A stretch of 23,195 nt of DNA from a virus (taxonomy: Duplodnaviria; Heunggongvirae; Uroviricota; Caudoviricetes), in the IMG/VR virus record IMGVR_UViG_2778261179_000020, one strand, 5' to 3'. This document shows positions 1-23,195 of the stretch, piece by piece; positions within the stretch are counted from its first letter, which is position 1, and every line of letters starts with the position of its first letter. The notes under the pieces were generated by a model. That model had not been told where the DNA came from. It worked only from the letters and a program-made list of their open reading frames with translations, and did not search any database. Made by a program: the position numbers and the translations under genes.

Positions 1-864
1 ATGAACAATTCTGAAGGTTTGAAGTCGTTTCAGCAATCGCTTGCTGGCCTGCCACAGTGGGTGTCTGAACGTATATTGCAGCAGATAAATCAGTTAACCC
101 ATTACGAGCCAGTAATCGGCATTATGGGTAAGAGCGGTGCCGGTAAATCCTCACTCTGCAATGCCCTGTTTGCCAGTGAGGTATCACCGGTCAGCGATGT
201 CGCGGCCTGTACACGTGAGCCACTGCGCTTTCGACTGCAGGTTGGCGACTGCTATATGACGCTGATGGATCTACCCGGCGTGGGCGAAAGTAGCACGCGC
301 GATACCGAGTATGCTGCGCTGTACCGAGAGCAGCTTTCTCGCCTCGACCTGGTACTGTGGCTGATTAAGGCTGATGACCGGGCACTGGCAGTGGATGAGC
401 ACTTTTATCATCAGGTGATTGGGGAGGCATACCGGCATAAAGTGCTGTTTGTTATAAGCCAGTCGGACAAGGCCGAACCCACCAGCGGTGGGGGACCGTT
501 GTCCACCGCGCAGAAGCAGAATATCAGCCGCAAAATCTGCCTGCTGCATGAGCTGTTCCAGCCCGTACATCCGGTGTGTGCTGTGTCGGTCCGTCTACAA
601 TGGGGGCTTAGGGTGATGGCCGAGCGGATGATTAAGTGCCTGCCACGTGAGGCCACCAGCCCGGTGGTGTCGCAACTCCAGCCTTCCTTTCGCACGACGG
701 TAGTCCGGGAACAGGCTCGAAGCGATTTTGGTGAAACCGTCGGTGCTCTACTCGATAGCATCAGTGCCTTTCCTCTGATACCCACACCTGTGCGGGCCGT
801 CATTCAGGCCGTGCGCACCACCGTGGTCTCTGTGGCCCGCGCCGTCTGGGATTTCTTCTTCTGA
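1..864 (+). CDS. P-loop GTPase, YkfA/YfjP/YeeP family
   Basis: 287-aa ORF with ATG at position 1; Walker A GIMGKSGAGKSS and downstream DLPG motif. Length matches recollection of K-12 YfjP/YkfA. Confidence 0.85.
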   Translation: MNNSEGLKSFQQSLAGLPQWVSERILQQINQLTHYEPVIGIMGKSGAGKSSLCNALFASEVSPVSDVAACTREPLRFRLQVGDCYMTLMDLPGVGESSTRDTEYAALYREQLSRLDLVLWLIKADDRALAVDEHFYHQVIGEAYRHKVLFVISQSDKAEPTSGGGPLSTAQKQNISRKICLLHELFQPVHPVCAVSVRLQWGLRVMAERMIKCLPREATSPVVSQLQPSFRTTVVREQARSDFGETVGALLDSISAFPLIPTPVRAVIQAVRTTVVSVARAVWDFFF

Positions 865-898
865 GTATTTAATCCATCCCTGTTATTTCCCTGACCCT

Positions 899-930
899 GT
901 CGCCGATGCGACGGGGATCCCCTTTATTTG
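899..930 (+). terminator. Putative intrinsic terminator after the GTPase gene
   Basis: Hairpin GTCGC-cgat-GCGAC followed by palindrome GGGGATCCCC and a T-rich tract TTTATTTGTTTT. Confidence 0.3.
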
Positions 931-955
931 TTTTCCCGTTATGAGGAGTCTGCTT

Positions 956-1777
956 ATGACCCGTCTGGCTTCGCGCTTTGGCGCAGCAAACCTTATCCGT
1001 CGCGACCGTCCGTTAACCCGTGAAGAGCTGTTTCGCGTAGTGCCCAGTGTGTTCAGTGAGGACAAACACGAGTCCCGTAGTGAGCGTTATACCTATATAC
1101 CCACCATCTCCCTGCTCGACAGCCTGCAGCGAGAAGGCTTCCAGCCATTCTTTGCCTGTCAGACCCGCGTGCGTGACCCGGGTCGTCGTGAACATACAAA
1201 GCATATGCTGCGTCTGCGGCGGGAAGGGCAGATCACCGGTATACAGGTGCCGGAAATTATTCTACTCAACTCTCACGATGGAACCAGTTCGTATCAGATG
1301 TTGCCGGGACTATTTCGTGCGGTTTGTCAGAACGGGCTCGTCTGCGGTGAGTCGTTTGGCGAGGTGCGGGTGCCACACAAGGGGGACGTGGTGAGTCAGG
1401 TGATTGAAGGCGCGTATGAGGTGCTGGGGATTTTTGACCGGGTGGAGGAGAAACGGGATGCCATGCAGTCGTTGCTGTTGCCACCCCCGGCACAGCAGGC
1501 ACTGGCAAAAGCCGCCCTCACATACCGCTTTGGTGAAGACCACCAGCCGGTGACTGAATCGCAGATCCTCTCCCCTCGCCGCTGGCAGGATGAGAGCAAT
1601 GACCTGTGGACCACGTACCAGCGGATTCAGGAAAACCTGATTAAGGGCGGACTCAGCGGGCGTAATGTTAAAGGCGAACGAACGCATACTCGTGCCGTGC
1701 GTGGCATTGACGGGGACGTGAAGCTTAACCGTGCGCTGTGGGTGATGGCTGAAACACTGCTCACACAACTGCATTAG
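956..1777 (+). CDS. DUF932 family protein, YafZ/YfjQ-like
   Basis: ORF 941..1777; the internal ATG at 956 has AGGAG 7 nt upstream and gives 273 aa, matching the recalled length of this family. Confidence 0.75.
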   Translation: MTRLASRFGAANLIRRDRPLTREELFRVVPSVFSEDKHESRSERYTYIPTISLLDSLQREGFQPFFACQTRVRDPGRREHTKHMLRLRREGQITGIQVPEIILLNSHDGTSSYQMLPGLFRAVCQNGLVCGESFGEVRVPHKGDVVSQVIEGAYEVLGIFDRVEEKRDAMQSLLLPPPAQQALAKAALTYRFGEDHQPVTESQILSPRRWQDESNDLWTTYQRIQENLIKGGLSGRNVKGERTHTRAVRGIDGDVKLNRALWVMAETLLTQLH

Positions 1778-1993
1778 ACGTTTTATGTTGCCACATTGTT
1801 ATTATCGGACACCACCTGTCCGAATTGCTACGTGCTCGTGTGCCTCAATCTCCCGGTAATAGCCTGTAACCCCCGTTACATCTGGCTTTTGTAGAAATAA
1901 AAAATAGTTTCTGCGTTGTCCATACCCTGTCCGCCCCCCTGTTTAAAGTAATCACATCATTTTCAGTCAGTTAACTTTCCTGGAGAACCTCTC

Positions 1994-2695
1994 ATGACAC
2001 AGGCAGAACGCCGCCATGACCGGCTGGCTGTCAGGCTGTCACTGATAATCAGCCGTCTGGTTGCGGGTGAAACGTTGAGCGTGCGCAAACTGGCGGCTGA
2101 GTTTGGCGTGTCGGTGCGCACGCTGCGGCGTGATTTTCGTGAGCGGCTGATGTATCTGGACCTGGAGTATCAGTCCGGATATTGCCGCTTACGCACAGCG
2201 GGCAGTGAGACGCAGATGGTGCCCGACGTGCTTATCTTTGCCCATCGCAGCGGGATGGCCGGTCTTTTTCCTGGCTTTGACCGCCGTCTGGTGAACGCAC
2301 TGCTGATGTGCGATGAGTCTCCCTGCGTTATAGCACCCGCCAATCCGGTTCCTTCGCCTTCAGGAGCATTGTCTTTCTGGAGACTGATTCAGGCCATTAC
2401 CGGGCGCAGGCGGGTAACGCTGATTGCCGAGGAGCAGCGCTGTGAGCGGCTGGCTCCCTGTCGGTTACTCATCCACCAGCAGGCCTGGTATCTGGTGGCA
2501 GAGCACGACGGACATATCGCCGTATTCACCCTGGATGAAATCCATCTGGTTCAGCCCCTGCAGGAGACTTTCCGGCGTAACGACAGTCTGTGTCGTCTTG
2601 TTGAAGACCCGGGCTTTATTCAGTCCTTACCCCATTTTCGCTTTATCCAGCAGTCATTGCTTACATTTGTTCCGGCTGACAGCCCACCGGAATAG
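1994..2695 (+). CDS. HTH transcriptional regulator, DeoR/WYL-type (YfjR-like)
   Basis: 233-aa ORF; N-terminal HTH-like segment [21 protein letters not shown]; GGAGAA upstream of the ATG. Confidence 0.7.
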
Positions 2696-2735
2696 CGCAG
2701 GCATTGTTATCAACCCGGCAACAGGGAGGAGCCCT

Positions 2736-2885
2736 ATGCCCGTTATTGCCATTATCGCCATTGTTGTCATCGTCATCATTCTGAACAAAACCGGGGTGTC
2801 CGACAGTCTCGCGGCCCTGACCCTTGCCACTGTTGCCGCACTGCTGACGGGAGGTGCGCAGCCGGTGCTGCCAGTGTCGCGCTGA
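2736..2885 (+). CDS. Small hydrophobic membrane protein (YpjK-like), apparently frameshifted
   Basis: ATG at 2736 with strong SD AGGGAGGA; MPVIAIIAIVVIVIILNK transmembrane segment; stop at 2883-2885. A second hydrophobic segment continues in another frame to 2971. Confidence 0.4.
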   Translation: MPVIAIIAIVVIVIILNKTGVSDSLAALTLATVAALLTGGAQPVLPVSR

Positions 2886-2970
2886 CACCGTTCGTCGGCG
2901 TGCCGGTGGGTATTTTCGTCGGCATTTATGTCTTTGCCAAAGTGGTACGTCTGATTTCAGGGAAAAAATA

Positions 2971-3414
2971 ATGAAATGTAAAACACTACCTCTGCTGGCG
3001 ATGGTTGCCACCACTCTGTTTCTGAGCGCCTGCGATGACAGGAGTGATGACCTGAAAGCTATCAGTAAATTTAAGGACCTCACGCCTCCGCGCTTCAGCG
3101 ATGTGGTCAGTCGGCAGGATGATGTCAGCGAAGAATGGTCACAGGTTGGCTTTTCATCAGGTCTCACCCTGCAGGTCTTACGTACCCGTGAGTCGCCCGA
3201 TGGCTGCGAGGGCGGTAGTTACTACTACCTCGTGGATATGCAAGAAAAAACCATCCAGCCGCTGATGAATGCGCTGTGTATTGCCGATAACATCAAACTG
3301 GAATACCAGGAGGTGACGGACCCGTATACCAAAGAAAAATACTTTGAGTACGCCCATGACGGCAAACTGATGGGGCAGCTACTGATACCCTCGAACCCTG
3401 ACAATCAGGAATAA
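2971..3414 (+). CDS. Lipoprotein (YafY/YfjS-like)
   Basis: 147 aa from ATG 2971; signal peptide with lipobox LSAC (MKCKTLPLLAMVATTLFLSACDD). The track ORF 2854..3414 has a non-native N-terminal extension. Confidence 0.7.
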   Translation: MKCKTLPLLAMVATTLFLSACDDRSDDLKAISKFKDLTPPRFSDVVSRQDDVSEEWSQVGFSSGLTLQVLRTRESPDGCEGGSYYYLVDMQEKTIQPLMNALCIADNIKLEYQEVTDPYTKEKYFEYAHDGKLMGQLLIPSNPDNQE

Positions 3415-3436
3415 AACAACGACAAAGGAGACAAGA

Positions 3437-3904
3437 ATGACAATACTTTCACTAAGTCGGTTTATGCTGGCGGGTGTACTGCTCGCGAGCTTTAATGCCT
3501 CTGCTATCCCGGGGTTCTGGCAGCAGGGTTACGGTCAGGGCAATACGGAATACAGCGTGACCGAAGCCAGCGGAAAGACGTTTACCATCAACTGCACAGG
3601 GAACCCGGACCAGAATGGTTTCTATCAGCATTCAGTCTTTCTTACCCTTGCCGATGACAAGATGGTCAGTTCGCACGATGACGACACTACTATCACCGTA
3701 GTGATGGATCACCAGCAGTACATTATTCCGTCCAGCCTGGGCTGGCGTAACGGCGATAACGCCTGGTTTGACTTCATCAGCAATATCTCTGAGGCCGGGC
3801 AGTTCGACGTCTACGTCAATGACCACAAAGCAGGGACCTTCACTGCGGACCGGAAGAACACTGAGAAAGTTCTGTCCACTCTCGGAGACTGCAGCAACGA
3901 CTGA
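3437..3904 (+). CDS. Secreted protein with signal peptide (YkfB/YfjT-like)
   Basis: 155-aa ORF; N-terminal hydrophobic signal [23 protein letters not shown]; AAAGGAGA upstream. Confidence 0.65.
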
Positions 3905-3980
3905 TAGTAGTATCTTCCCCAGCAAATCCACCCCGACAGCTAGCAGGCTGCCGGGGTTTTCTTTTATCAGGAGCCCGAAA

Positions 3981-4220
3981 ATGACCCAATCCGTGTTGCT
4001 GCCACCGGGGCCTTTCACCCGGAGACAAGCGCAAGCGGTCACTACCACGTACAGCAATATCACACTCGAAGACGACCAGGGCAGTCACTTCCGTCTGGTG
4101 GTTCGTGATACTGAAGGCCGGATGGTCTGGCGGGCATGGAACTTTGAGCCGGATGCCGGTGAAGGTCTTAACCGCTATATCCGCACCTCAGGCATCCGTA
4201 CAGACACGGCCACCCGCTGA
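3981..4220 (+). CDS. DUF905 family small protein (YkfF-like)
   Basis: 79-aa ORF from the internal ATG of track ORF 3768..4220, with AGGAG upstream; size and position match this family in CP4-type modules. Confidence 0.55.
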
Positions 4221-4273
4221 TCGCGAAGCATTTACCCGCATTCACCTCCCCGAACACACTTTATATCCCCATA

Positions 4274-4300
4274 CGCCAGCCATCGCCGCTGGCGTTTTTA
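4274..4300 (+). terminator. Putative intrinsic terminator or attenuator
   Basis: 7-bp stem CGCCAGC / GCTGGCG with 7-nt loop, followed by TTTTTA. Confidence 0.35.
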
Positions 4301-4317
4301 TTGACGGAGACATACCC

Positions 4318-4776
4318 ATGACAACACAGACGCAGCACGACCTCGCACCCGCTAACCAACCCGAATTTGAACTGACCGTCACGCCGGTCCCCGATGAACA
4401 GCGTATCGATTTCTGGCCACAGTACTTTGGCGCTATCCCGCAGTGGCTACTCCTGGAGCCGCATATCTTCGCCTGGATGGATCGCTTCTGTGAGGGCTAC
4501 AGCGGTGGTATCTGGTCGTTCTACACCCTCAGCAATGGCGGCGCATTTATGTCCCCCGAGCCTGACAACGATGAGACATGGCGTCTGTTTAACTGCCTGA
4601 ACGGTAACGATGCCCAAATGAGTGCAGAAGCAGCAGGTATTGCTGTCTGCCTGATTGCGTATAGCCACCATGCCTGCCGTACAGAATGTGACGCGATGAC
4701 CGCACACTATTACCGCCTGCGGGAGTATGCCATGCAACATCCAGAGGCTCACGCCATTCTGCGTATTATCGACTGA
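4318..4776 (+). CDS. Antirestriction protein, ArdB/KlcA family (YafX/YfjX-like)
   Basis: 152 aa from internal ATG 4318 with GACGGAGA upstream; sequence recognised as the KlcA/ArdB-like protein that precedes RadC in CP4 modules. Confidence 0.8.
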   Translation: MTTQTQHDLAPANQPEFELTVTPVPDEQRIDFWPQYFGAIPQWLLLEPHIFAWMDRFCEGYSGGIWSFYTLSNGGAFMSPEPDNDETWRLFNCLNGNDAQMSAEAAGIAVCLIAYSHHACRTECDAMTAHYYRLREYAMQHPEAHAILRIID

Positions 4777-4791
4777 CCGAAGGAGCAACAG

Positions 4792-5268
4792 ATGAAACAG
4801 CTTTCCTTTTTACCCGGCGAGATGACGCCACAGGACCGGCGTCTCATTCAGCGGGCGCTCAGGGCTCTGGACCGCCACCTGCATGAGCCCGGCGTAGCCT
4901 TCACCTCTACCCACGCCGTACGTGAATGGCTGCGACTGCATATGGCCGCGCTTGAACGGGAAGAGTTCCGGGTGTTGTATCTGGACAACCAGAATCAGTT
5001 GATTGCCCATGAAACGCTCTTCACCGGCACGATTAACCGCACCGAGGTGCATCCCCGGGAGGTGGTCAAACGTGCTCTGCACTTCAACGCGGCGGCGGTG
5101 ATACTCGCGCATAACCATCCTTCCGGCGAGACGACACCTAGCCAGGCCGACAAAACCCTCACGCAGCGACTGGTTCAGGTGCTTCAGCTGGTGGATATCC
5201 GTGTCCCTGACCATCTGATTGTCGGTGGCAGGCAAATCTATTCGTTCGCAGAACACGGTCTGCTTTGA
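4792..5268 (+). CDS. RadC-like JAB/MPN domain protein (YkfG/YfjY/YeeS-like)
   Basis: 158-aa ORF; JAMM-type motif HNHPSG; GGAG SD upstream. Confidence 0.85.
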   Translation: MKQLSFLPGEMTPQDRRLIQRALRALDRHLHEPGVAFTSTHAVREWLRLHMAALEREEFRVLYLDNQNQLIAHETLFTGTINRTEVHPREVVKRALHFNAAAVILAHNHPSGETTPSQADKTLTQRLVQVLQLVDIRVPDHLIVGGRQIYSFAEHGLL

Positions 5269-5276
5269 GGTATTAC

Positions 5277-5498
5277 ATGAAAATTATCAGTAAACGCAGG
5301 GCAATGACGATATACCGCCAGCATCCTGAGTCCCGAATCTTTCGCTACTGCACCGGCAAATACCAGTGGCACGGTAGCGTCTGTCATTACACCGGCAGGG
5401 ACGTTCCGGATATCGCCGGAGTCCTCGCGGTATACGCCGAACGCCGCCAGGACCGCAATGGGCCCTATACCTGCCTGATGAGCATCACCCTGAACTGA
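5277..5498 (+). CDS. DUF987 family protein (YkfH/YeeT-like)
   Basis: 73 aa from the internal ATG (MKIISKRRAMTIYRQHPESRIF...); conserved position between the RadC-like gene and the antitoxin. Confidence 0.65.
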   Translation: MKIISKRRAMTIYRQHPESRIFRYCTGKYQWHGSVCHYTGRDVPDIAGVLAVYAERRQDRNGPYTCLMSITLN

Positions 5499-5516
5499 CA
5501 ATAGTGGAGAACTGTA

Positions 5517-6196
<680 letters not shown>

Positions 6197-6261
6197 ACAT
6201 TGCGTACAACCTTCCCGATTTACATTTCTGAACTTCCTCCCTTGTTTACCTATTGCGTAAT

Positions 6262-6957: not shown

Positions 6958-7719
6958 TCACTGAATAGTCTCATTATCTTCAGGCTTAGTTATTTCATCT
7001 TCTAATTTATCCAACCACGTTATAGCACATTGATTCAAATCGATGATCAGATTTTCCACATACACAATTATTGAATTAAATTTCCTAGGGTTAACACTAC
7101 TTTTAAACTCCCCATGTCCCAAAGAATTTCTAAGGCCAACAACCTCACCTAGTTGCGATAAATCAAGTGATGAATAATCCAAACCTATAGCATCGAAATT
7201 CACCTTGACAACCATTTCATTCACATTGGAAAATGTCATAACTAATTCAGAAACATCGCAATCTGATAATGTGGATTTATTAAACCTGTCAATGTGTTGA
7301 ATTACCTCACTTGTTAGTTTAAACGCCCCCTTCGTAACTTTCTTTTTTATTTGGGCGCCATTATGGACAATGCTTCGGTGTGAGTCAGCATCATAAATAT
7401 TTTTTATCATATCTACATACTTGCTATAAAATGGTTCTCGTTGCAACCAAAGTGCTCGAATTTCTGCAGAGTATCTAAATGCCTCTCTATCTGAGAGTTT
7501 CAATGTATTTAAGCAAACTGACATTGTTTCAGTAAAAAAACCCTCCCAAGAAGAATAAATCATTGGGACCGATATTATTCTAAACATATCCTCCTTGTCT
7601 TTATCACCTGATCTCGACATAAACTCATTAATAGACTTTATGCTCTCAAGGAATCCAAGACTTTCATTTTTCGTCTTTTCCAACATCACCTTGAAATCAT
7701 CGAAATCTGATATTCTCAT
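6958..7719 (-). CDS. HEPN-domain protein (putative RNase), third gene of the MTase-DUF262-HEPN operon
   Basis: 253 aa from ATG at 7719 (the track start at 7743 is TTG); AAGGTG upstream; C-terminal Rx4H motif in GLRNSLGHGEF; start lies 1 nt after the DUF262 stop; AT-rich. Confidence 0.55.
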   Translation of the reverse strand: MRISDFDDFKVMLEKTKNESLGFLESIKSINEFMSRSGDKDKEDMFRIISVPMIYSSWEGFFTETMSVCLNTLKLSDREAFRYSAEIRALWLQREPFYSKYVDMIKNIYDADSHRSIVHNGAQIKKKVTKGAFKLTSEVIQHIDRFNKSTLSDCDVSELVMTFSNVNEMVVKVNFDAIGLDYSSLDLSQLGEVVGLRNSLGHGEFKSSVNPRKFNSIIVYVENLIIDLNQCAITWLDKLEDEITKPEDNETIQ

Positions 7720-7720
7720 T

Positions 7721-8833
7721 TTATCCAAACACCTTCTTCCCAAGAGCGATTCTTTTCTCTAATTTGGCTTTAGTATTAGATCCAGAACCAGTACAAGCTC
7801 TTAATTCTTTGATCTCACCATCCATTAAATAATCAAATCTTTTCGCCACCTCAGCAGGTGTTAAATTATCTACATTACTAAAAATACCAACAGCAACAAC
7901 ATCTAATAAATTAGTACTAAACGGGCCACTTGGAGCACCATCCTTTCTAAATTTAAATGCTTTACCAGATAAACCAGCAATATTTATCAAATCAAAAGTT
8001 CTTTTTATTTTTAATTCAAAATTAATATCAATAACATTATGTTCTGCCGCGTAGAACATAAATTCATCCAAAAAGTCAGTTACACTATGGCTAAATTTAT
8101 CCGCATAAGTCAAAGATGCCATAACTCGTAGCAAAGCTTCCTCAACACCTTGAGATTTTTGGCCATCTTCATTTATTCCAAGAGCTTGAACAATACCATC
8201 AATTTCGGCCATCTTACGTAAGCGATCTGCAAATTCATTCCCTGCTAATCTAGCCATGCAATTACGTATTTCCTGGTCACTCAAACGAACACCAGACCTA
8301 TTCAGTCGTTTAAAAACATTATATTTAGTTTCAGGTTTTGTTTCTTGCTCCAAAATAACAACATTTACTCGCGCATTTTTTATAGTTCGGCTAACTTTGT
8401 CCGGCAATCCTTTTGCAGTCCATCCATTTAATTCTGTAATTATAGGCACATCATCAAGAACAGTTGGATTACGGACATCATTTACAGAGTTTTGTTTCTT
8501 TGCATTATCTATTTCTTCCTTATTAAAAATATCCTCTGAAAAAAATCTAATTATAGTACTCACACGTTGCAATCCATCGATAACCTCCTGCTTACCATTA
8601 TTATCAATGTAGAAAAAAAGTGTTGGCGTAGGTATATTTAAAAGTAATGACTCGATAAATTGGCTTTGTCTTGCGTTATCCCAACGAAAAAGCCTTTGGT
8701 AGTCTGGAGAAATGGTTATCTCATTTTCTTTATATAGATTAATTACTTCACGCCATGATATGGTATAAGAATCAGTTACTACCTCATCTCTTTTTTCATC
8801 TATCTGAGATAGCAATTTAGTTACGTCATTCAT
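7721..8833 (-). CDS. DUF262 (ParB/Srx-like NTPase) domain protein
   Basis: 370-aa ORF; hallmark motifs DYQRLFRW and IDGLQR (DGQQR-like) in the N-terminal half; its ATG overlaps the MTase stop (ATGA). Confidence 0.75.
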   Translation of the reverse strand: MNDVTKLLSQIDEKRDEVVTDSYTISWREVINLYKENEITISPDYQRLFRWDNARQSQFIESLLLNIPTPTLFFYIDNNGKQEVIDGLQRVSTIIRFFSEDIFNKEEIDNAKKQNSVNDVRNPTVLDDVPIITELNGWTAKGLPDKVSRTIKNARVNVVILEQETKPETKYNVFKRLNRSGVRLSDQEIRNCMARLAGNEFADRLRKMAEIDGIVQALGINEDGQKSQGVEEALLRVMASLTYADKFSHSVTDFLDEFMFYAAEHNVIDINFELKIKRTFDLINIAGLSGKAFKFRKDGAPSGPFSTNLLDVVAVGIFSNVDNLTPAEVAKRFDYLMDGEIKELRACTGSGSNTKAKLEKRIALGKKVFG

Positions 8834-10056
8834 TTTGTTATCCTTATGATTTTTTCAAAATAAACTTTATCTTTAATATAATTTTTTGACTTGGTATTTA
8901 TTTGTCCAAATATTGCTTTAACTTGATCTTCTCTCACACATTTCGCTTCTGAAAACCCAATAGAAAGCGCCATTTCACAATAAATATCATAAAGCGGAAT
9001 CTCTATTTCCTTATAATATGAATTTTGTATTACAAAATAACCAGAGCAACCTACCTTTAAAACTCTAAAGATTTCCATTAATGACTCATACGCATCAGAA
9101 AAATATCTAATTTTATTTTTAAGGTAATAACTTCCAGATGCTCTTGATGTATGCGATGTTACCGATGACAAAACATCCATACACAATGGCCCCCATTTTT
9201 TATTAATTTCATCCGCAACTTTAGGCACAGTCGTCGTGCCCATCATTTCCTTTCTAAGAGACTTATATCCCTCACTCCCTAAAATTATTTCCAACTCAAG
9301 ACGAGTAGAAACGGCATAGTCTATTCGTGTTAAATACGGTGGCGATGTAATAACAAGATCAATTGTGTTACTTTTAATATTTAATTTTTTACTATCCACG
9401 TTTAAAATCGAGTAACATGCCCCCCCATTAGCGCTGCCATAATATTCACTTAACTGCTCACGCATAATTTTAAAATTTTTATTATATTCAAAACAAATAT
9501 CAAATTTATTATTAAAGTCTACTTTTTTAGAAATCCATGTAGGATTTGAAGTTGACCTAACATCAAGGACATTGCGAACAGTATAAAATAAAACACTGCA
9601 ATAAAATGCTTTTAAAGGATTTACGATATCATTTTGTCCTTTATCCATAAACTGATCACAGATACATTTATAAAACTTTTGTAACTGTTCAATAAGTGGA
9701 TAGCCCTTCGATGACTCAGTTATATCTTTTGTTTTTTTTCTAAAGCAAAGCAGTATCCTTTCCAGGAGTTGCTCTCCGGTATAATCCAGCGCTGAAATAT
9801 TATCCCTACTTTTGGCTGCAGCAAAATAGCTCATTACAGGATTAATATCTGCTCCAATACACTTTATGGTTTGCTTTTGACAAACTATACCAGTGGTACC
9901 GCTTCCCATCCAAGGATCAAGAACGGTAGCGGACGACTTAACTCCTTCAGCCTGCAAAACAGAAGCCACAAATGACTCTGAATAGCCCGCATAGTATGGA
10001 TGCCAAGAGTGAAGCCCCTTGCGTTCGTTTCTCCCTCTTTTCGCGCCTGCAATCAT
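8830..10056 (-). CDS. DNA amino-methyltransferase (N6-adenine or N4-cytosine)
   Basis: 408-aa ORF; AdoMet motif I DPWMGSGTT near the N-terminus and catalytic motif IV SPPY (LVITSPPYLTRIDY) mid-protein. Confidence 0.85.
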   Translation of the reverse strand: MIAGAKRGRNERKGLHSWHPYYAGYSESFVASVLQAEGVKSSATVLDPWMGSGTTGIVCQKQTIKCIGADINPVMSYFAAAKSRDNISALDYTGEQLLERILLCFRKKTKDITESSKGYPLIEQLQKFYKCICDQFMDKGQNDIVNPLKAFYCSVLFYTVRNVLDVRSTSNPTWISKKVDFNNKFDICFEYNKNFKIMREQLSEYYGSANGGACYSILNVDSKKLNIKSNTIDLVITSPPYLTRIDYAVSTRLELEIILGSEGYKSLRKEMMGTTTVPKVADEINKKWGPLCMDVLSSVTSHTSRASGSYYLKNKIRYFSDAYESLMEIFRVLKVGCSGYFVIQNSYYKEIEIPLYDIYCEMALSIGFSEAKCVREDQVKAIFGQINTKSKNYIKDKVYFEKIIRITK

Positions 10057-10405: not shown

Positions 10406-10585
10406 TTATCGCCGCAGCCTGTCCGGTTTCTTCCACTGATACGGCCTCACATCATCATGCTGGTGGCGTTCCTGTTGCAGCACAACGGAAACAGGCGCTG
10501 AACACCTGTTAATTTTGCTTGCTGGTTGTTTGATTTCGGCAATGCTGCGGAGCATCTCCAGCATATCGGCTTCGGTGATGGTCAT
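10406..10585 (-). CDS. Hypothetical small protein (59 aa), first ORF upstream of the MTase operon
   Basis: ATG at 10585 with AAGGTG 3-4 nt upstream; translation MTITEADMLEMLRSIAEIKQ...; not in the ORF track (under 60 aa). Confidence 0.25.
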   Translation of the reverse strand: MTITEADMLEMLRSIAEIKQPASKINRCSAPVSVVLQQERHQHDDVRPYQWKKPDRLRR

Positions 10586-10614
10586 GATTTACACCTTAGG
10601 AAATCTTAGGGGCT

Positions 10615-10875
10615 GGTTGACACTTTCCGGCTTAAGACCTTAATAAATCTTAATACCGCAGGTTGACACACTTGACACTTTTTCGCGAAAAACCTTATCA
10701 AACCTTAGCATTTCTAAGCATGGCAACTTGACACTTTTCGCTATTTTTTCGGTTTTTTGACGTGGTGAATATGGTACAAGGCCAGTAATGGCGAGGCATC
10801 CAGCGAGGTTGACACTTTTTCGCGTTCAGAGTGTAAAGTGTCAACCTGGCAAACTGCTCAACTTGACACTTTTTG
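10615..10875. repeat. Array of seven TTGACAC(TTTT) repeats (six direct, one inverted)
   Basis: TTGACAC at 10617, 10663, 10672, 10728, 10809, 10863 and inverted at 10838-10844. Copies at 10807-10818 and 10835-10846 form a 12-bp inverted pair GGTTGACACTTT / AAAGTGTCAACC. Confidence 0.6.
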
Positions 10876-10878
10876 AGG

Positions 10879-11406
10879 TCATTGATGGCCTGATTTTTCC
10901 CATTCAGCCAAGGCGTTTAGTCCTGCCTCACTCCATGTGTCCTGTTCATCGGGACAATCGCTGGCAACATAGCAGAGTTCGCAACGCAGCATACGAATTG
11001 CCAGCCTGGCATTACCTCGCAAATTGTATTTTTCAAAGTAATGCTGCCCTTCATCATCCTCAAGACAGATAGCACCATCATCAAGAAAGTGCACTTCCCA
11101 GCCTAATTCCCCGGCTGCATACAGCACACGCTGCTGTATGGCCTCGTCCGTTACTGGCGCAGGAATTTTACCGTCTCTGGCCTTAACTGCTTTCCAGAAC
11201 TCGCCCCATGTCATTTCCAGCGTTCTTTCTGGCCACATTTCAGAAATGGTGTCTTTCCCCTGTGCTGGTGGGCTGTTCCGCTGCTCTGTCGCTTCCACAT
11301 CAATTTTTTTACCGGACATGACCACTTCGCCTTTCTCGAGCCAGTCGTAAACTGTCTGGCGGCTTACGCCTTTGTATTTGGCGTATTCGGCTTTACTCAT
11401 CAACAT
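10879..11406 (-). CDS. Putative DNA-binding protein with N-terminal winged-HTH (Nu1/MerR-superfamily-like)
   Basis: Track ORF 10879..11424; the ATG at 11406 has GAGGTG 7 nt upstream. The N-terminal segment KGVSRQTVYDWLEKGEV resembles the HTH of lambda Nu1-type small terminases, by recollection. Confidence 0.5.
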   Translation of the reverse strand: MLMSKAEYAKYKGVSRQTVYDWLEKGEVVMSGKKIDVEATEQRNSPPAQGKDTISEMWPERTLEMTWGEFWKAVKARDGKIPAPVTDEAIQQRVLYAAGELGWEVHFLDDGAICLEDDEGQHYFEKYNLRGNARLAIRMLRCELCYVASDCPDEQDTWSEAGLNALAEWEKSGHQ

Positions 11407-11505
11407 GTAGCTCACCTCATGCATATACGATAAAAAATAATTTCATGCGGAAAGGGAATGCGTTGTGGGTATGGAGGAAAGGGGCAATAACCGCCCCTTA
11501 CTGAT

Positions 11506-13884: not shown

Positions 13885-14172
13885 TTACTGACTACAATTG
13901 TTCTTTTTTTGGTATTTCCTGAATGCCTCACCATTGGGCTGATGTAATCCCATCCCGGCATGTGCCCGGCTGATGGTTTTGCGCATCTCCCCGAAATTAT
14001 CCTGCCTTGCTGGTGGGCGTGCTGCCTTGTGGATACATTCCGCGCGACGTTTTGCCGCCAGCTCCCGTGCCTTGTCATCATTCGCCAGCATGATGACCTC
14101 AGCCCACCGCGCCGCCGCTCTCCGGTACAGACCACGCGCTTCCAGAGCTTCCGCTTTGCTGTCGTGAATCAT
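13885..14172 (-). CDS. PerC-family transcriptional regulator-like protein
   Basis: 95-aa ORF; N-terminus MIHDSKAEALEARGLYRRAAARWAEVIM matches my recollection of PerC/Pch proteins; its ATG overlaps the stop of the FinO-like gene. Confidence 0.55.
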   Translation of the reverse strand: MIHDSKAEALEARGLYRRAAARWAEVIMLANDDKARELAAKRRAECIHKAARPPARQDNFGEMRKTISRAHAGMGLHQPNGEAFRKYQKKNNCSQ

Positions 14173-14591
14173 GCGCCTGTTTTCTCCTTTGCTGCCCGAC
14201 GCTGACGTTTGCGTTTCTCATTCAGCGCAACCAGCCGCGTTTCTGCGTCCTGTTGTTCCTGTGGTGTCACCTCGCCGCACGGCTGGCATTTCAGGTCGTA
14301 GCGTACCCCACCAGCCATTAAGGCGCGGTAATAGCGCGGACACTGCGCATAAGATGCCAGCGTCGCACGCAATGCCCCTGGCCCGAATGCCAGCCCCCTG
14401 ACGGCGAGATCCTGCATCAGGTCGTCGAATATCCCCACCTTAAGCGGCTTCGGTGCTTCCCGGCTGAATAATTCAGGCCACAACTCAGTGAGGCGGTTAA
14501 CGCGTCTGCGGTTTTTTCGCTGCCGTTTGGTCATATGCCGCCACGGTGTTGCCCCTGTGGGCTTCTGCTGCGCTTCCTGGTTACCGGGCAT
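14169..14591 (-). CDS. ProQ/FinO-family RNA-binding protein
   Basis: Track start at 14594 is GTG; ATG at 14591. Segment LWPELF...KPLKVGIFDDL...ALRATLASYAQCPRYYRALMAGGVRYDLKCQPCGEVT fits the FinO/ProQ domain pattern. Confidence 0.6.
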   Translation of the reverse strand: MPGNQEAQQKPTGATPWRHMTKRQRKNRRRVNRLTELWPELFSREAPKPLKVGIFDDLMQDLAVRGLAFGPGALRATLASYAQCPRYYRALMAGGVRYDLKCQPCGEVTPQEQQDAETRLVALNEKRKRQRRAAKEKTGA

Positions 14592-14716
14592 CACTTTATG
14601 CGCCGATGTGGTTTTATCCGCTGCTGCGCCGCCTGCGTCGTTTTCTGCGGCGTGCCGTAAATACCTTTTGGTTTTCTGTTAATGGTCAGCTTAGTCATGC
14701 TTTGCCCCATCGTTAC

Positions 14717-15054
14717 AACTGTCTACCAACTGTCTACCGATATAATTGATTGATTTATTTAATGTTATTAACACATAACAAAAAAACAATCTGCAAACTG
14801 TCTACCAACGGTCTACCGCATTAATACATTGATAATTAATGATTTTTACTAAATGGTAGACAGTGTAGACAGTTAAAAGAGAAATTTAAAAAATGCCCCC
14901 TTAACTATCTGTTTTTTATATACCCCCCGTGGTTTAGGAATATAGAAATAACTGTCTACCTCTCTACCACATTGAAAATATCTTTATAATTCAAAATATT
15001 AATTGGTAGATGGTTGGTAGAGGGTTAAGTGAATCTGTCTACCAACCGTCTACC
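14717..15054. repeat. Iteron array, putative origin of replication
   Basis: About 12 copies of NGTCTACC, as four tandem pairs with 11-bp period (14717/14728, 14796/14807, 14950/14961, 15033/15044) plus inverted copies at 14855-14872 and 15005-15024, flanking an AT-rich core; immediately 3' of the primase gene. Confidence 0.6.
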
Positions 15055-15081
15055 TTTACGTTTCAGCTTATAAATTTCGTA

Positions 15082-16887
15082 TTATGTTCTGTCGTTAATC
15101 CCTGTAGCTGCTGGCAACCAGCCATCAGCATCATCATCTAACAGAACATTTGTTATCACTCGCCCTTTATCCGGGCCTTTAGTGCATTTAGCCCGCTTAT
15201 ACTCCTTTCCGTATTCCGCCATAGCTCCTGGCATATCAGTACCAAAGCGTGTCAGTGATACTGGTTTTCCCAGGCCATGCGCTGACATATAGGCTAAATA
15301 AGCATGATACAGGTATCGCCTCGGGCTAAATGGCACTATTTCCGCATTGCCCACCATCATTCCTTCACATTTAACCAACGACATCAGATAGCCGCAAAAG
15401 TCCACCAGTGAATCACCTTCGCGCTTTATCAACAGCGCTTCTTCTGATTTTTGCTGCTCATAAAGTAGTCTTTTAGCTTCGTCCTGGTCGGTAAATCGTG
15501 TTAGCAAATGGCGAATCACTACCGCCAGTTCGCCTTCTATCTTTTCCGCCAGCATGGGATCGCGTTCGTTCTCCGGTACGACCTCAGAGAAATTAAATAT
15601 CACCCTACGACGCGAGATCCCCCCGCTTCGGTCACTGAATGACATGGCGTTATTGTTTACCGCAAGCACTACTGCCGGAATACGTGTGGAGTAGGGGGCT
15701 TTATGTTTCGGATCAATTGCCACCTTGTCGCCGCCAGTAATTGCCTTAATTCCTGCACCATCGCCAGCGTAGCGAGTCATATCCGGCATGATAATCAGCG
15801 AAAAGCCAACTACTAACGCGCGTTCCCTTGCGTCTTCCAGAGCCTTCATGCTTGCCGATACTGTGTTGGCCTTACCCGCCAGCATGGTACAAATCTCAGC
15901 CATCACACTTTTACCGCTTCCGCCTGGGCCTGTTACCTCAAGGAATAACTGCCAGTCGTACCGGTTCGCCAGTACCATGAATAATGCCGCCAGTACGCGA
16001 TCAGCTTTACGATCATTATCTGCCACCGAACGACGCAGCCACTTCCAGAAATTCGGCGCATGTGTTGCCAGCGTTTCCCCCTCTGCTGGTGGGCTGAACG
16101 GTAATTCACTGGCATTTAACAACCAGTCATTTTTGTTATGCTCCCGAAAATTTCCCGTCCGGGTATCAAATACCCCGTTACTGAATCCAATAAGATTCCT
16201 GTCTGCCCCGCCCATAACAGGCAGGCTCAATTTCATTGTGTCTACGGCAAATTTAATGGCGTTTTGCGAATAACTGATTCCAGCATCAATAAAAATCTTC
16301 GCCATAGACCGCTGGAGTTCCTTATCAGATACAGGCACCCAGACAATTCCGTTGTAATGGTGAACTACATCAGAATCATCATTTATAGCCAGTGCTCTTC
16401 CATAATATTCAAGTAACACTTCCCCTCTCTGGCTGGCTCCCATCTGATTTAGTGCTGGCCTGGATAGGTCAATATTTTTTGTGGCTAATTTCATCGCTGA
16501 AACTTCCCCACTCTCTGCCTGTTCGCGGATCCGTTGCAGGTAGTCGCGCCAGTTTTCCGGCTCCCGGTCGGTGATACCTTTGTATAATTTCGCGTCCTGT
16601 ACACCAGCCAGCGCCAGCTTTTCAGCAATAGCATTGATCTGGATTGGCTCTATCTCCCCCGCGAGATAGACACGCGCAAAGCGGCGTTCATCGTCGACAA
16701 TGCGGATATTCGCCAGGTCTGCCAGTTGCTTTGGCCCCAGGTAAACAGGAGGCACGTTATCGCCGTGTTTTCGTCCTTCGCTTTCAATCCAGTGTTGAGC
16801 ATGGGCGTAAGCATCCGTCCCGGCAAAAATGATTACCTCGGTGAATTTATCCTTCGGCTGATATTTTAAATTCGGTGCGTTTTTCAC
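15082..16887 (-). CDS. Primase/helicase-like replication initiator (P4-alpha / D5-type P-loop NTPase)
   Basis: 601-aa ORF; Walker A GPGGSGKS; GTG start with GGGAGGT upstream, overlapping the preceding gene's stop. Confidence 0.85.
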   Translation of the reverse strand: MKNAPNLKYQPKDKFTEVIIFAGTDAYAHAQHWIESEGRKHGDNVPPVYLGPKQLADLANIRIVDDERRFARVYLAGEIEPIQINAIAEKLALAGVQDAKLYKGITDREPENWRDYLQRIREQAESGEVSAMKLATKNIDLSRPALNQMGASQRGEVLLEYYGRALAINDDSDVVHHYNGIVWVPVSDKELQRSMAKIFIDAGISYSQNAIKFAVDTMKLSLPVMGGADRNLIGFSNGVFDTRTGNFREHNKNDWLLNASELPFSPPAEGETLATHAPNFWKWLRRSVADNDRKADRVLAALFMVLANRYDWQLFLEVTGPGGSGKSVMAEICTMLAGKANTVSASMKALEDARERALVVGFSLIIMPDMTRYAGDGAGIKAITGGDKVAIDPKHKAPYSTRIPAVVLAVNNNAMSFSDRSGGISRRRVIFNFSEVVPENERDPMLAEKIEGELAVVIRHLLTRFTDQDEAKRLLYEQQKSEEALLIKREGDSLVDFCGYLMSLVKCEGMMVGNAEIVPFSPRRYLYHAYLAYMSAHGLGKPVSLTRFGTDMPGAMAEYGKEYKRAKCTKGPDKGRVITNVLLDDDADGWLPAATGINDRT

Positions 16888-20629: not shown

Positions 20630-20827
20630 TCAGGTAGCTGTTCCGCGTGATTCCGCAATACGCTGATTAATCCACTCGTCAATTTCACTCTCAACGAAAG
20701 CAATAGCTCGCGAGCCAATTTTAACTGATGCAGGAAATTTACCTTGCCCCATAAGGCGATAAATCCATGCCTTGCTATATCCAGTTCTACGCTGAACTTC
20801 TGTTAAACGAATAAGCGTATTTGACAT
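20630..20827 (-). CDS. alpA: AlpA-family phage transcriptional regulator / excisionase-like
   Basis: 65-aa ORF; hallmark AlpA sequence LIRLTEVQRRTGYSKAWIYRLMGQGKFPASVKIGSRAIAFVESEIDEW; GAGGT SD. Confidence 0.85.
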   Translation of the reverse strand: MSNTLIRLTEVQRRTGYSKAWIYRLMGQGKFPASVKIGSRAIAFVESEIDEWINQRIAESRGTAT

Positions 20828-20896
20828 ATATTTACCTCATAACGTCTACTCAATTTGACGAGGTAATCATGGCACAGAAATAACGAATATTTTCAT

Positions 20897-21039
20897 ACCC
20901 TCAGGCCTAATGGTTACCGGAAGGAAATCTACCCTAAGGGTGATGGTAATCGGGAGGAAATCTACCCTAAGGGTGATGGTAAAATTGACGGGGAAGATAA
21001 AAAAATACCCTCAGGGTAACAGTAAATCACCCTCAGGGT
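20897..21039. promoter_or_regulatory. Operator array upstream of alpA: four full 11-bp palindromes ACCCTNAGGGT plus a half-site
   Basis: ACCCTAAGGGT at 20931-20941 and 20964-20974 (inside a 33-bp tandem duplication, 20917-20949 and 20950-20982); ACCCTCAGGGT at 21007-21017 and 21029-21039; partial ACCCTCAGG at 20897-20905. Confidence 0.5.
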
Positions 21040-21054
21040 ATGCGGTATGGTGCG

Positions 21055-21852
21055 TTAATCCGGCTTTGCGTTCTTTTGGCTGTTGTCTCGGTTAATAGGG
21101 CAGGCAGTCCTCTCTATGAGCGTTGCAAGTGCATTACTTGCCCCCCACTGCTTAAGCTCCCTGGTTATCGCTTCTTGATTTCCCCTGGTGGCAAAATCAT
21201 TTTCTGGATCGTAATTGGCCCACTCTCTGTTTCTAATCTCAATAGCCTTAGCTAATGGGTCTTTATCCCAGTATTTATATAAGTGTATCGGGCGCTCTTG
21301 CTCTAACTGCTCTATCCTTGCCCTTAACTCTGCGTTTTCTTTTTCCAGCATTGCGATTTGGGATAATAAATCATCCTCTGTACGCAACTCTTTCTTTTCA
21401 ATATCGCGTCCTTGTGCCTCGTCATTTTCAGAAGAGTTAGCGCCTTCCAGCTTCGTTAACGCGTCAAGGACATCGGGAAAAATTGCGAAAATTTCACCCC
21501 TTATAAATCCAATGTTCTCAAATTCGGGATCTTCCCAATAACCGGACACCAGAAAACCATTTTCATCCCTCTCACCAGGTAAACAACCACGTTTCCGAAC
21601 CGCATTCAGATTTCTATAAAGAACATCATTATCAAATTCATCCCGATACGGGTTACAAAAAGATTCCAACAGCTTAAATTCATTTACTGTGTACAGGCGG
21701 ATATGTTCTCCGCTTATTCTCCTGAGTATCCAAGTTATGACATCTGAAACATCATAATCATCACCAGCGACCTTAAGCACGACCTCAAGAAATTCACGTA
21801 AAGAAATAAAATCTTTTTTGTATTCGTTTAATTCGGCATGAATATCAATCAT
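21055..21852 (-). CDS. Hypothetical acidic coiled-coil protein (265 aa) between integrase and alpA
   Basis: ATG at 21852 with GAGGTG upstream (the track start at 21858 is GTG); coiled-coil segment LLSQIAMLEKENAELRARIEQLEQE; lower GC than neighbours; no recognisable catalytic motif. Confidence 0.55.
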   Translation of the reverse strand: MIDIHAELNEYKKDFISLREFLEVVLKVAGDDYDVSDVITWILRRISGEHIRLYTVNEFKLLESFCNPYRDEFDNDVLYRNLNAVRKRGCLPGERDENGFLVSGYWEDPEFENIGFIRGEIFAIFPDVLDALTKLEGANSSENDEAQGRDIEKKELRTEDDLLSQIAMLEKENAELRARIEQLEQERPIHLYKYWDKDPLAKAIEIRNREWANYDPENDFATRGNQEAITRELKQWGASNALATLIERTACPINRDNSQKNAKPD

Positions 21853-21980
21853 ACGCACACCTCAGCGTCCTCTACTGTAGTGGCTGTACCAGTCCGTCGA
21901 GGTGTACGGATTTTCGGGAGCGACCCTAGACACAGCCTTTTCTTTCGTCGCTCAAAGTCTACTACTGTATACTCAACCAG

Positions 21981-23195
21981 TCACCCGCATTTTCCGAACT
22001 CACCATGCACCACATTTCCGCCATGCTCGAGCGAATCCATATAATCAGCGTACCACTGAAGCATTTCCCGCCGCCCATCCAGATATTGCGCATGGTTGTA
22101 TGTGCCACGAATTGAGTTTTTATCGACGTGCGCAAGCTGTGTCTCTATCCACGCGGTGTTATAGCCCTGCTCATGCAAAATGGTGCTCATAGTGTGCCGG
22201 AAGCCATGACCAGTAACCTTTCCGTTATAGCCGATGCGTTTAAATACTTGGTTTATGCTAGCCTCGCTCATTGTTTTCCTTGGATCATTACGGCCGGGAA
22301 ACATAAGCGGATAATTGCCAGTTAGTTCTTTAATCTGCCCAATAAGCGAAAGAGCCTGCTCAGACAAAGGCACTACATGAGGGCGACGCATTTTCATCCG
22401 TGAAGCAGGTATCTCCCAGATAGCCTTGTTGAGATCGATTTCATCCCATAATGCACCGCGCAGTTCGCCAGTCCGCAAACCGGTGATAATCAGTAAACGA
22501 GCCGCCATAACAACCAATGCACTTCCTGAGTAACTGGACAATGCCTTGAAAAAATCAGGTAATTCTTTGGCTGTGAGGAAAGGATAATGATTAGATTCAT
22601 GACCTTGCATCGCGCTGGTGAGATCCGGTGCAGGGTTATACTCAGCACGTCCAGTGACAATTGCATAGCGGAAAACTTCCCCACATCGCTGCCTCACTTT
22701 TTTGGCTTTTTCGGTAGCACCGCGCCCCTCGATGCGCCGCAGCACATTCAGCAGTTCAAGTGGTTTGATTTCGGCGATTGGTTTTTTGCCAATGTAAGGG
22801 AACACATCTTTGTTGAAGGCTTCGAGGATGTCTGAAGCATAACCAGCAGACCATTTTTTTAATTTGCTGCTGTGCCACTCAAGGGCAATATCTTTGAAGG
22901 TGTTGTTTAACTGCGTTTCCCGGGCAATCTTTTCCTCTCGTTTCGCTTCCATCGGATCGATACCCCCAGCGATACCCCTTTTAGCTTCTTCACGTTTTGC
23001 ACGAGCATCAGCCAAGGTAACTTCAGGATACACACCTAGTGCTAACAGCTTCTCTTTACCAGCTACACGATACTTGAAGCGCCAATATTTTCCTCCACTA
23101 GGTTTTACCAAGAGATACAGACCACCACCATCAGCCAGCTTGTAAGCCTTCTCTTTTGGCTTGGCAGTGTCTATTTGACGGGCATTGAGTTTCAC
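21981..23195 (-). CDS. int: Tyrosine recombinase / phage integrase (P4-family-like); 5' end at or just beyond the window edge
   Basis: 404 codons; N-terminus ..KLNARQIDTAKPKEKAYKLADGGGLYLLVKPSGGKYWRFKYR typical of P4-type integrases; catalytic HGFRHT and Tyr-containing RGTYNHAQY near the C-terminus; first codon in the window is GTG. Confidence 0.9.
   Translation of the reverse strand: MKLNARQIDTAKPKEKAYKLADGGGLYLLVKPSGGKYWRFKYRVAGKEKLLALGVYPEVTLADARAKREEAKRGIAGGIDPMEAKREEKIARETQLNNTFKDIALEWHSSKLKKWSAGYASDILEAFNKDVFPYIGKKPIAEIKPLELLNVLRRIEGRGATEKAKKVRQRCGEVFRYAIVTGRAEYNPAPDLTSAMQGHESNHYPFLTAKELPDFFKALSSYSGSALVVMAARLLIITGLRTGELRGALWDEIDLNKAIWEIPASRMKMRRPHVVPLSEQALSLIGQIKELTGNYPLMFPGRNDPRKTMSEASINQVFKRIGYNGKVTGHGFRHTMSTILHEQGYNTAWIETQLAHVDKNSIRGTYNHAQYLDGRREMLQWYADYMDSLEHGGNVVHGEFGKCG

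Follow-up and report, generated by a model that had tools for sequence, protein, structure and literature searches.

Which function should be assigned to the repeat-filled gap (14699-15081, i.e., 383 bp) that separates two minus-strand genes of IMGVR_UViG_2778261179_000020? This IMG/VR virus record (Duplodnaviria; Heunggongvirae; Uroviricota; Caudoviricetes), whose 23,195 nucleotides are called the window throughout, carries an island that sits in the E. coli chromosome next to tRNA-Thr/proA. The gap extends from the stop codon of a 601-residue helicase gene (15082) to the ATG of the following gene (14698), and a repeat array occupies the whole of it. The comparisons reported below lead to the conclusion that 14699-15081 is very probably the replication origin of this island, an integrative satellite resembling the phage-inducible chromosomal islands (PICIs). 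A first reading of the window, made from the sequence only, had proposed an iteron-type origin, and this proposal finds computational support in (i) a match of the helicase to a solved origin-binding domain (1KA8), (ii) the iteron of EcCICFT073 and (iii) a survey of 83 related loci. An origin of this kind has already been described and tested in the sister element EcCICFT073; it is a largely expected feature, and current understanding is not overturned. The finding nevertheless locates the replicon of an island that is widespread in E. coli and Salmonella and carries anti-phage defence cargo.

The sequence-only reading had located about 12 copies of an octamer in this region, and all 12 were recovered where it had placed them. 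They are copies of (AAC)TGTCTACC arranged as six pairs, with AACTGTCTACC as 11-mer consensus, and all lie within 14717-15054. On the plus strand the 11-mers start at 14717, 14728, 14796, 14807, 14950, 14958, 15033 and 15044, on the minus strand at 14855, 14864, 15005 and 15016. The consensus is exact in 4 of the 12 copies, carries one mismatch in 5 and two mismatches in 3. The 7-mer GTCTACC is exact in 8 copies, the rest reading GTCTACA, CTCTACC (twice) and ATCTACC. The description of four tandem pairs at 11 bp, accompanied by inverted copies, also proved right (14717/14728, 14796/14807, 15005/15016 and 15033/15044); the remaining two pairs are spaced by 9 bp (14855/14864) and 8 bp (14950/14958).

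TCTACC occurs 17 times in the window for 6.3 expected, and 11 of these occurrences fall within the 338 bp of the array. When up to two mismatches are allowed, the 11-mer gives 18 matches in the window for 4.1 expected, 12 of them within the array. GGTAGAC is found 8 times in the 383-bp intergenic region, a value never attained in 2000 dinucleotide shuffles (mean maximum 2.9). Since the three counts exceed expectation, chance is excluded as the source of the repeats.

From the helicase gene (hereafter the initiator gene) towards the next one, the array is built as follows. Pair 6 (15033-15054, plus strand; ATCTGTCTACC and AACCGTCTACC, 11 bp apart) lies 27 bp from the initiator stop codon. Pair 5 (15005-15026, minus strand; AACCATCTACC and AACCCTCTACC in minus-strand reading, 11 bp apart) flanks a 36-bp AT-rich spacer (14969-15004, GC 11%), which holds the least stable 30-mer of the region (14975-15004) and is the candidate melting site of a module called B. 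On the other side of this spacer, pair 4 (14950-14968, plus strand; AACTGTCTACC and ACCTCTCTACC, 8 bp apart) converges with pair 5 at a start-to-start distance of 43 bp, a value typical of the family; its copy at 14950 is the most variable iteron across E. coli alleles. A 75-bp linker with C- and G-runs (14875-14949, GC 31%) then separates the two origin halves; the canonical layout described below has no equivalent of it. In module A, pair 3 (14855-14874, minus strand; CACTGTCTACC and AACTGTCTACA in minus-strand reading, 9 bp apart) and pair 2 (14796-14817, plus strand; AACTGTCTACC and AACGGTCTACC, 11 bp apart) converge with a start-to-start distance of 44 bp across a second AT-rich spacer (14818-14854, GC 16%), the candidate melting site of this module. 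A third spacer (14739-14795, GC 19%) leads to pair 1 (14717-14738, plus strand; two exact AACTGTCTACC, 11 bp apart), which is in surplus relative to the canonical layout and ends 19 bp short of the start codon that follows.

The first reading had described a single AT-rich core flanked by the repeats. The AT-richness is real, but it is distributed over these three spacers (GC 11-19%). They belong to the least stable parts of the window, along with the comparable low-GC cargo genes at 6.8-9.5 kb. Four matches to the integration host factor consensus were found in the window, two of them in spacers (14822-14834 and 14743-14755, both on the minus strand); they are not conserved in the other iteron classes. 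No DnaA box was found within 1 mismatch across 14699-15081, and an Rfam scan gave no family in or near the array.

The initiator gene (15082-16887, minus strand; 601 aa) was analysed with Pfam, NCBIfam, the 1KA8 match, an alignment to P4 alpha and AlphaFold2 (AF2) models. Its product comprises an N-terminal alpha/beta domain (aa 1 to about 140, from the AF2 model), a D5_N domain (aa 156-285) and a superfamily 3 (SF3) helicase / DUF5906 domain (aa 319-427, with the Walker A motif GPGGSGKS at 320-327), both from Pfam, and a P4-alpha-type origin-binding domain (aa 490-592) which is supported by the 1KA8 match and by Pfam Pox_D5 (aa 490-567). With E = 6e-19, residues 491-592 are matched to 1KA8, the solved origin-binding domain of P4 alpha; over residues 141-592, the identity to the helicase and origin-binding portion of that protein is 49%. 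When the sequence is aligned with those of P4, CFT073 and Ant (vB_KppS-Ant), no substitution is seen in the residues of Walker A, Walker B, the sensor or the arginine finger, i.e., the helicase motifs are intact.

The gene had been taken for a primase, a name that the sequence does not support. It could be traced to the NCBIfam model primase_Cterm (P4 family) alone, which spans the helicase part. When the N-terminal ~140 residues are compared with the P4 primase domain, no similarity emerges (best E = 6.8); Pfam and NCBIfam scans of aa 1-140 gave no primase family, and no primase, zinc-finger or TOPRIM motif is detectable there. For aa 1-150, AF2 gives a small alpha/beta domain with a predicted local distance difference test (pLDDT) score of 75, its core being mostly above 90 with dips to the high 70s. 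On these sequence data a primase activity of the 601-aa protein is unsupported. The ~320-aa zinc-finger/primase N-terminus of P4 alpha is thus replaced here by an unrelated domain of ~140 aa. Many relatives in other genera align only from about aa 140 onward; since their matches start there, the alignments suggest that N-terminal domains are exchanged ahead of a shared helicase and origin-binding module. A routine misannotation is in this way corrected, i.e., a "DNA primase" without recognisable primase domain.

A comparison with the origins of related elements had been suggested together with the first reading, and it was carried out on 83 loci carrying relatives of the initiator, the window and its near-identical copies (L001 and L005) being left out. 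For each locus, the 450 bp 3' of the gene were searched for enriched 7-8-mers. An iteron array occupies the equivalent position in almost all of the 83 loci: one 7-8-mer is enriched, mostly in about 5-12 copies and on both strands, a few Xenorhabdus loci having just 3-4 copies. At least five iteron classes can be distinguished: GTTCACC (P4, vB_KppS-Ant, EcCIRM13514, Klebsiella, Pectobacterium and Xenorhabdus), GTCTACC (the window, Kluyvera, Enterobacter, Lelliottia, Scandinavium and CFT073), CTCCACC (Yersinia, Rahnella and Erwinia), and GTCCACC and CTGTCCG (both in Serratia).

The site offsets, counted from the first site, are approximately common to all classes, i.e., 0>, 10>, 52<, 74>, 85>, 93>, 125<, 137<, 147<, 169>, 212< and 220<. 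This canonical layout is its own reverse complement and consists of two mirror-image halves of the form '>> AT < >>>'. Across the AT-rich spacer, the starts of convergent sites are most often 42-43 bp apart (68 of 115 junctions). All the iteron copies of a locus change together at fixed positions, as expected for sites read by a single co-evolving protein.

The part of the protein that changes with the iteron can be delimited. The iteron class goes with a short stretch of variable sequence that follows helix 3 of the origin-binding domain, and the last ~40 residues differ by type. All the TTCACC loci have a stretch without insert (K-x-x-T/S-K-x-G-I-R/Q-S/T-N), while the window-type TCTACC loci carry the 5-aa insert GPDKG (…CTKGPDKGR…, at about aa 568-576 in the window protein). 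The CTCCACC loci have a 1-aa insert and the Serratia classes have other inserts. For the C-terminal domain, three helices followed by strand, loop and strand are predicted, which would place the insert in the hairpin loop, i.e., in the "wing" of a winged helix. The AF2 model of this domain (pLDDT 44) is unusable for a fold search, and only the order of its secondary-structure elements was taken.

Two proteins are informative. The E. coli protein P0056 is 87% identical overall to the window protein; by 40-residue blocks the identity is 82-100% up to aa 560 and drops to 22% in aa 561-600, and the origin of P0056 has GTTCACC iterons in the canonical layout. A Kluyvera protein has a lower overall similarity to the window protein, yet it is 77% identical in aa 561-600 and is associated with TCTACC iterons. 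The pattern is thus not one of deep phylogeny alone. The lineage of CFT073 and L084 makes an exception, as it has TCTACC iterons and no wing insert; more than one wing sequence can thus yield TCTACC specificity. Directly supported are the anatomy of the array, the homologies of the protein, the conservation of position and geometry across the family, and this joint change of iteron and protein.

A wider claim is advanced tentatively and as a whole; it is possible but rather doubtful. The P4-alpha/PICI family would descend from one ancestral origin made of two mirror-image half-origins, each autonomous; P4 would have kept one half as ori, most islands would have kept both, facing inward, and the lineage of the window would have swapped them. 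In the same claim, the ~40 residues of wing and tail would form a switchable 'iteron code' with at least five specificities, and the window type would have arisen by a 5-residue insertion in the wing. If this is true, the code would permit several satellites of one cell to replicate without cross-initiation.

TGTTCACC is the type I repeat of P4 (from the GenBank annotation and sequence). The octamer of the window had been said to resemble it, and rightly so: 6 of 8 positions match TGTCTACC. P4 also raises a first alternative. According to its GenBank annotation, the position directly 3' of alpha is occupied by the crr array, ori being about 4.5 kb away. The window array could by analogy be a crr-like site, i.e., an initiator-binding element that acts in cis to enhance replication or to control copy number, true initiation taking place elsewhere in the island; two other unexplained repeat arrays (10612-10878 and 20890-21042) are indeed present in the window. 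There is, however, no second TCTACC cluster in the window: outside the array the hexamer occurs only at 6 scattered places, two of which lie within an unrelated palindrome repeat. The two modules of the window moreover share the 43-bp convergent geometry of the P4 ori proper, whose offsets in the direction of alpha (0, 10, 52, 75, 86 and 96) are exactly one canonical half.

The functional data on EcCICFT073 point in the same direction. Its pri-ori fragment suffices for replication, the corresponding plasmid being maintained at restrictive temperature; deletion of rep abolished colony formation, and deletion of ori reduced the number of colonies significantly (Fillol-Salom 2018, ISME J, PMC6092414). 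In E. coli PICIs the origins have iteron sets on either side of an AT-rich region, directly 3' of pri-rep (PMC6092414). The order of primase-type gene, then origin, on which the first reading relied, thus applies to PICIs such as EcCICFT073 and fails for P4, where crr holds this position. A crr-like role is for these reasons considered unlikely, and an origin is retained. The features of a PICI origin are found here: the array adjoins the initiator stop (27 bp), it contains two convergent '>> AT <<' modules, the gene is a Pri-Rep homologue and the gene order is that of a PICI.

The repeat arrangement, which had been offered as an argument for an origin, has a geometry conserved across the family but appears here in a half-swapped form of the usual layout. 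Read in the orientation of the gene, the sites of the window, of Escherichia ruysiae and of Salmonella are 28<, 39<, 60>, 71>, 114<, 122<, 212>, 221>, 265<, 276<, 344< and 355<. The first six fit the canonical distal half (0, 11, (32), 43, 86, 94 vs. 0, 12, 44, 87, 95), and the next four fit the offsets of the canonical proximal module (0, 9, 53, 64). It follows that both halves are present with a correct internal geometry (43 and 44 bp) and that their order is swapped. They are joined by the 75-bp linker, and one extra iteron pair follows. Over 30 nt, the spacer 14818-14854, which belongs to this proximal module, shares 87% identity with the first AT spacer in the origin of vB_KppS-Ant; apart from this match, blastn-short against canonical origins gave iteron-sized matches only.

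Several points weigh against the assignment as an origin, or against parts of the argument. The order of the halves differs from that of the tested CFT073 origin and of all the other classes, and the linker and the extra pair are additional departures. Among the close E. coli alleles the iteron cores are conserved no better than the spacers: in five alleles (90.8-100% identical), 14 of 84 columns are variable in the cores and 55 of 299 in the spacers (p = 0.87), so that the evidence for constraint comes from the deep comparison only. The frameshift of the adjacent ProQ-like gene described below hints at some decay. As to the wing, its assignment rests on homology and on predicted secondary structure (pLDDT 44); the insert is not the sole route to TCTACC specificity, as CFT073 and L084 show; and, gene and origin being physically linked, shared descent could explain part of the correlation between protein and iteron. 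Finally, this exact origin type may already appear in the 2018 figure (a comparison without EcCIED1a).

The most direct use of these points would be to regard the array as an origin by descent which has lost its function, the half-swap being the scar of a decaying, immobile island. The deviation from the conserved dyad-symmetric layout, the unconstrained cores among close alleles and the failure to find a lambda-type cos agree with this, as does the frameshift. The gene concerned, of the ProQ/FinO family (14169-14698, minus strand), lies downstream of the array and is followed by PerC (13885-14172). In the window one T is missing after 14619, which leaves a 35-aa open reading frame (ORF) from 14698 and a 141-aa ORF from 14594; the frameshift is either a sequencing error or the mark of a pseudogene. 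The sister copies in APEC E123 and ETEC4079, on the contrary, have an intact 176-aa ProQ/FinO-like gene. The 601-aa ORF is also intact with all the helicase motifs, as are the integrase, AlpA and the other island genes, and both '>> AT <<' modules keep the exact family spacing. The layout is retained site for site in Salmonella despite the divergence of the spacers, which indicates a stable variant and not a one-off scar. A dead relic thus has little probability, and a working origin is preferred.

The proximity of pair 1 to the ATG at 14698 (19 bp) leads to another alternative, i.e., that the repeats are mainly a transcriptional operator array by which the initiator or another regulator controls proQ-perC, with no part in replication. 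No terminator was found on the coding strand between the initiator gene and the array, so the downstream genes would be transcribed through or from within it, and a weak promoter-like match on the minus strand (14966 to 14939) overlaps iterons. This match has little weight, as promoter-like matches are not above those of shuffled sequences (3 vs. 2.6), and the same holds for terminator matches. Above all, the array and its geometry are conserved whatever gene is downstream: in CFT073 genes for a single-stranded DNA-binding protein and hypothetical proteins, in Ant a capsid gene and in P4 attP/int. Should the binding of the initiator also have a regulatory side-effect, this would supplement an origin function, not replace it. 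A purely transcriptional role is consequently judged highly improbable. It may be speculated, with regard to the retained origin, that it is probably transcribed by read-through, since no terminator follows the initiator gene, and that initiator binding may also affect the expression of proQ-perC.

For binding, melting, helicase loading and the source of the primer, we infer the following scheme. The 601-aa SF3 helicase (D5/P4-alpha-type) would bind the twelve 8-bp TGTCTACC iterons by its C-terminal winged-helix origin-binding domain, with a specificity presumably set by the beta-hairpin wing and the C-terminal tail (about aa 561-600). The pairing of sites at 8-11 bp would seat two domains side by side. 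In each of the two '>> AT <<' modules, convergent pairs enclose a spacer of 36-37 bp with 11-16% GC; helicase hexamers could assemble on the bound protein and melt these AT-rich spacers. The protein would then act as the replicative helicase, priming and synthesis being provided by host enzymes or by a putative activity of the N-terminal domain. Each '>> 36-bp AT <<' module is accordingly predicted to be a melting unit, and initiator residues ~561-600 are predicted to decide between the binding of TGTCTACC and that of TGTTCACC.

The gene order of the island is as follows: a P4-type integrase (21981-23195), an unknown gene, AlpA (20630-20827), AntA-like, YlcI/YnfO, Icd-like, small genes, DUF4222, the 601-aa gene, the array, ProQ, PerC, small genes, a defence cassette and CP4-type remnants. 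It agrees with that of the published E. coli PICIs EcCICFT073 and EcCIRM13514. The array and its flanks are found in 105 of 5426 complete E. coli genomes, in every case on the chromosome, and the layout is also present in Escherichia ruysiae (L005) and in Salmonella Give (93% protein identity). No lambda/phi80-type cos was found within 3 mismatches, and the ORFs scanned include no terS or capsid-like match and no homologue of psu, delta or sid. The absence of packaging signals bears on the completeness of the island as a PICI, not on the origin.

In the ETEC1747 chromosome (NZ_CP122722.1), a 551-bp query (14600-15150) that extends into both flanking genes finds up to five places, and the array-only query matches a maximum of three places per genome. 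Several related elements may thus coexist in one cell, which is relevant to origin cross-talk and incompatibility.

Two other repeat sets of the window can be described. A second, unrelated array (10612-10878) contains seven copies of (G/C)TTGACACTTTT, six on the plus strand and one on the minus strand, and lies in the gap between the ORFs 10406-10585 and 10879-11424; it could be an operator/promoter array or another cis site. Upstream of alpA (minus strand), five copies of the palindrome-like TACCCT(A/C)AGGGT lie at 20890-21042, with a 33-bp tandem duplication (20910-20975) and two stray TCTACC hexamers inside the repeats; these sites are probably the operator set of the early promoter of the island. 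The Rfam motif int-alpA RNA (RF02996) is matched at 21869-21936 on the minus strand (45.5 bits, the gathering score being 35.8); its coordinates fall between the integrase gene and the unknown ORF 21055-21858.

The cassette at 6958-10056 (minus strand) is made of three defence-like genes, i.e., a DNA methyltransferase, a GmrSD_N / NsnA / PD-T4-2_A-like protein and a HEPN (RiboL-PSP) protein. The sister island of APEC E123 has GapS1 at this position, which indicates a variable cargo slot. The first 6200 positions (1-6200, plus strand) carry CP4-type remnants: a YfjP-like GTPase, DUF932, an HTH-WYL regulator, the YafY lipoprotein, a KlcA-type antirestriction protein and RadC. The satellite-like island thus adjoins the remnant of another mobile element.

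Among known systems, the classical iteron plasmid origins (pSC101, R6K, RK2 and P1 type) require direct repeats of 17-22 bp, an initiator of the RepA/pi/TrfA type and DnaA boxes. A plasmid-type origin does not fit, as the array has an 8-bp core (11-bp unit) in both orientations, an SF3 helicase as initiator and no DnaA box within 1 mismatch. The published PICI EcCI042 (E. coli 042, L093 5725-5924) has a RepA-family helicase in place of the alpha-type initiator, and a 200-bp gap 3' of the helicase gene with a different, AAGTGAGG-like repeat; position and principle are like those of the window, and the pair of protein and site is unrelated. Papillomavirus E1 and SV40 large T associate a helicase fused to an origin-binding domain with inverted short sites, a dyad-symmetric origin and an AT-rich melting region. 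The likeness to the window is an analogy only, because the origin-binding folds are unrelated and the sites have no sequence relationship.

In Staphylococcus aureus pathogenicity islands (SaPIs), the specificity of the origin sits in the C-terminus of Rep and is matched to island-specific iterons. The likeness to the window is drawn on the layout, i.e., pri-rep then ori, with an AT-rich region between two iteron sets (summary in PMC6092414). SaPIs belong to a Gram-positive lineage and differ from E. coli PICIs by their transcriptional organisation.

For P4, the statements on biochemistry follow the GenBank annotation and general background, a literature search for TGTTCACC having given unrelated papers only and a search for P4 crr nothing usable. 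P4 has homologous helicase and origin-binding domains, an array directly 3' of the gene (crr in P4), and in its ori the half-origin layout with the 43-bp convergent spacing. It differs in that its sites are split into ori and crr, the latter being two 120-bp direct repeats, whereas the window has a single array and not this bipartite ori/crr organisation, and in its type I iteron, the window having no GTTCACC cluster.

EcCICFT073 is the closest system. Its origin (read at L002 7009-7240) has the iteron CTGTCTACC/TCTACC, with a core identical to the TGTCTACC of the window. As in the window, about 11-12 iterons in both orientations lie directly 3' of Pri-Rep and flank AT-rich spacers. The convergent spacing (43-47 bp over the two), the domain order of the initiator and the gene order (int, AlpA, YlcI/YnfO, Icd-like, DUF4222, Pri-Rep, ori, PerC) are alike. 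The initiators are 44% identical, the one of the window having the 5-aa wing insert and the one of CFT073 none; the Pri-Rep of EcCIRM13514 is closer in sequence (75% identity). In the window, unlike in EcCICFT073, the origin halves are swapped, with the 75-bp linker and the extra iteron pair, and the island carries defence cargo instead of capsid-like genes or a lambda cos. Its site (tRNA-Thr/proA) is outside the eight published for E. coli PICIs. The family comparison ties P4 ori/crr and the PICI origins to one dyad-symmetric template, which is useful for annotating satellite origins and for predicting cross-talk and incompatibility between co-resident satellites.

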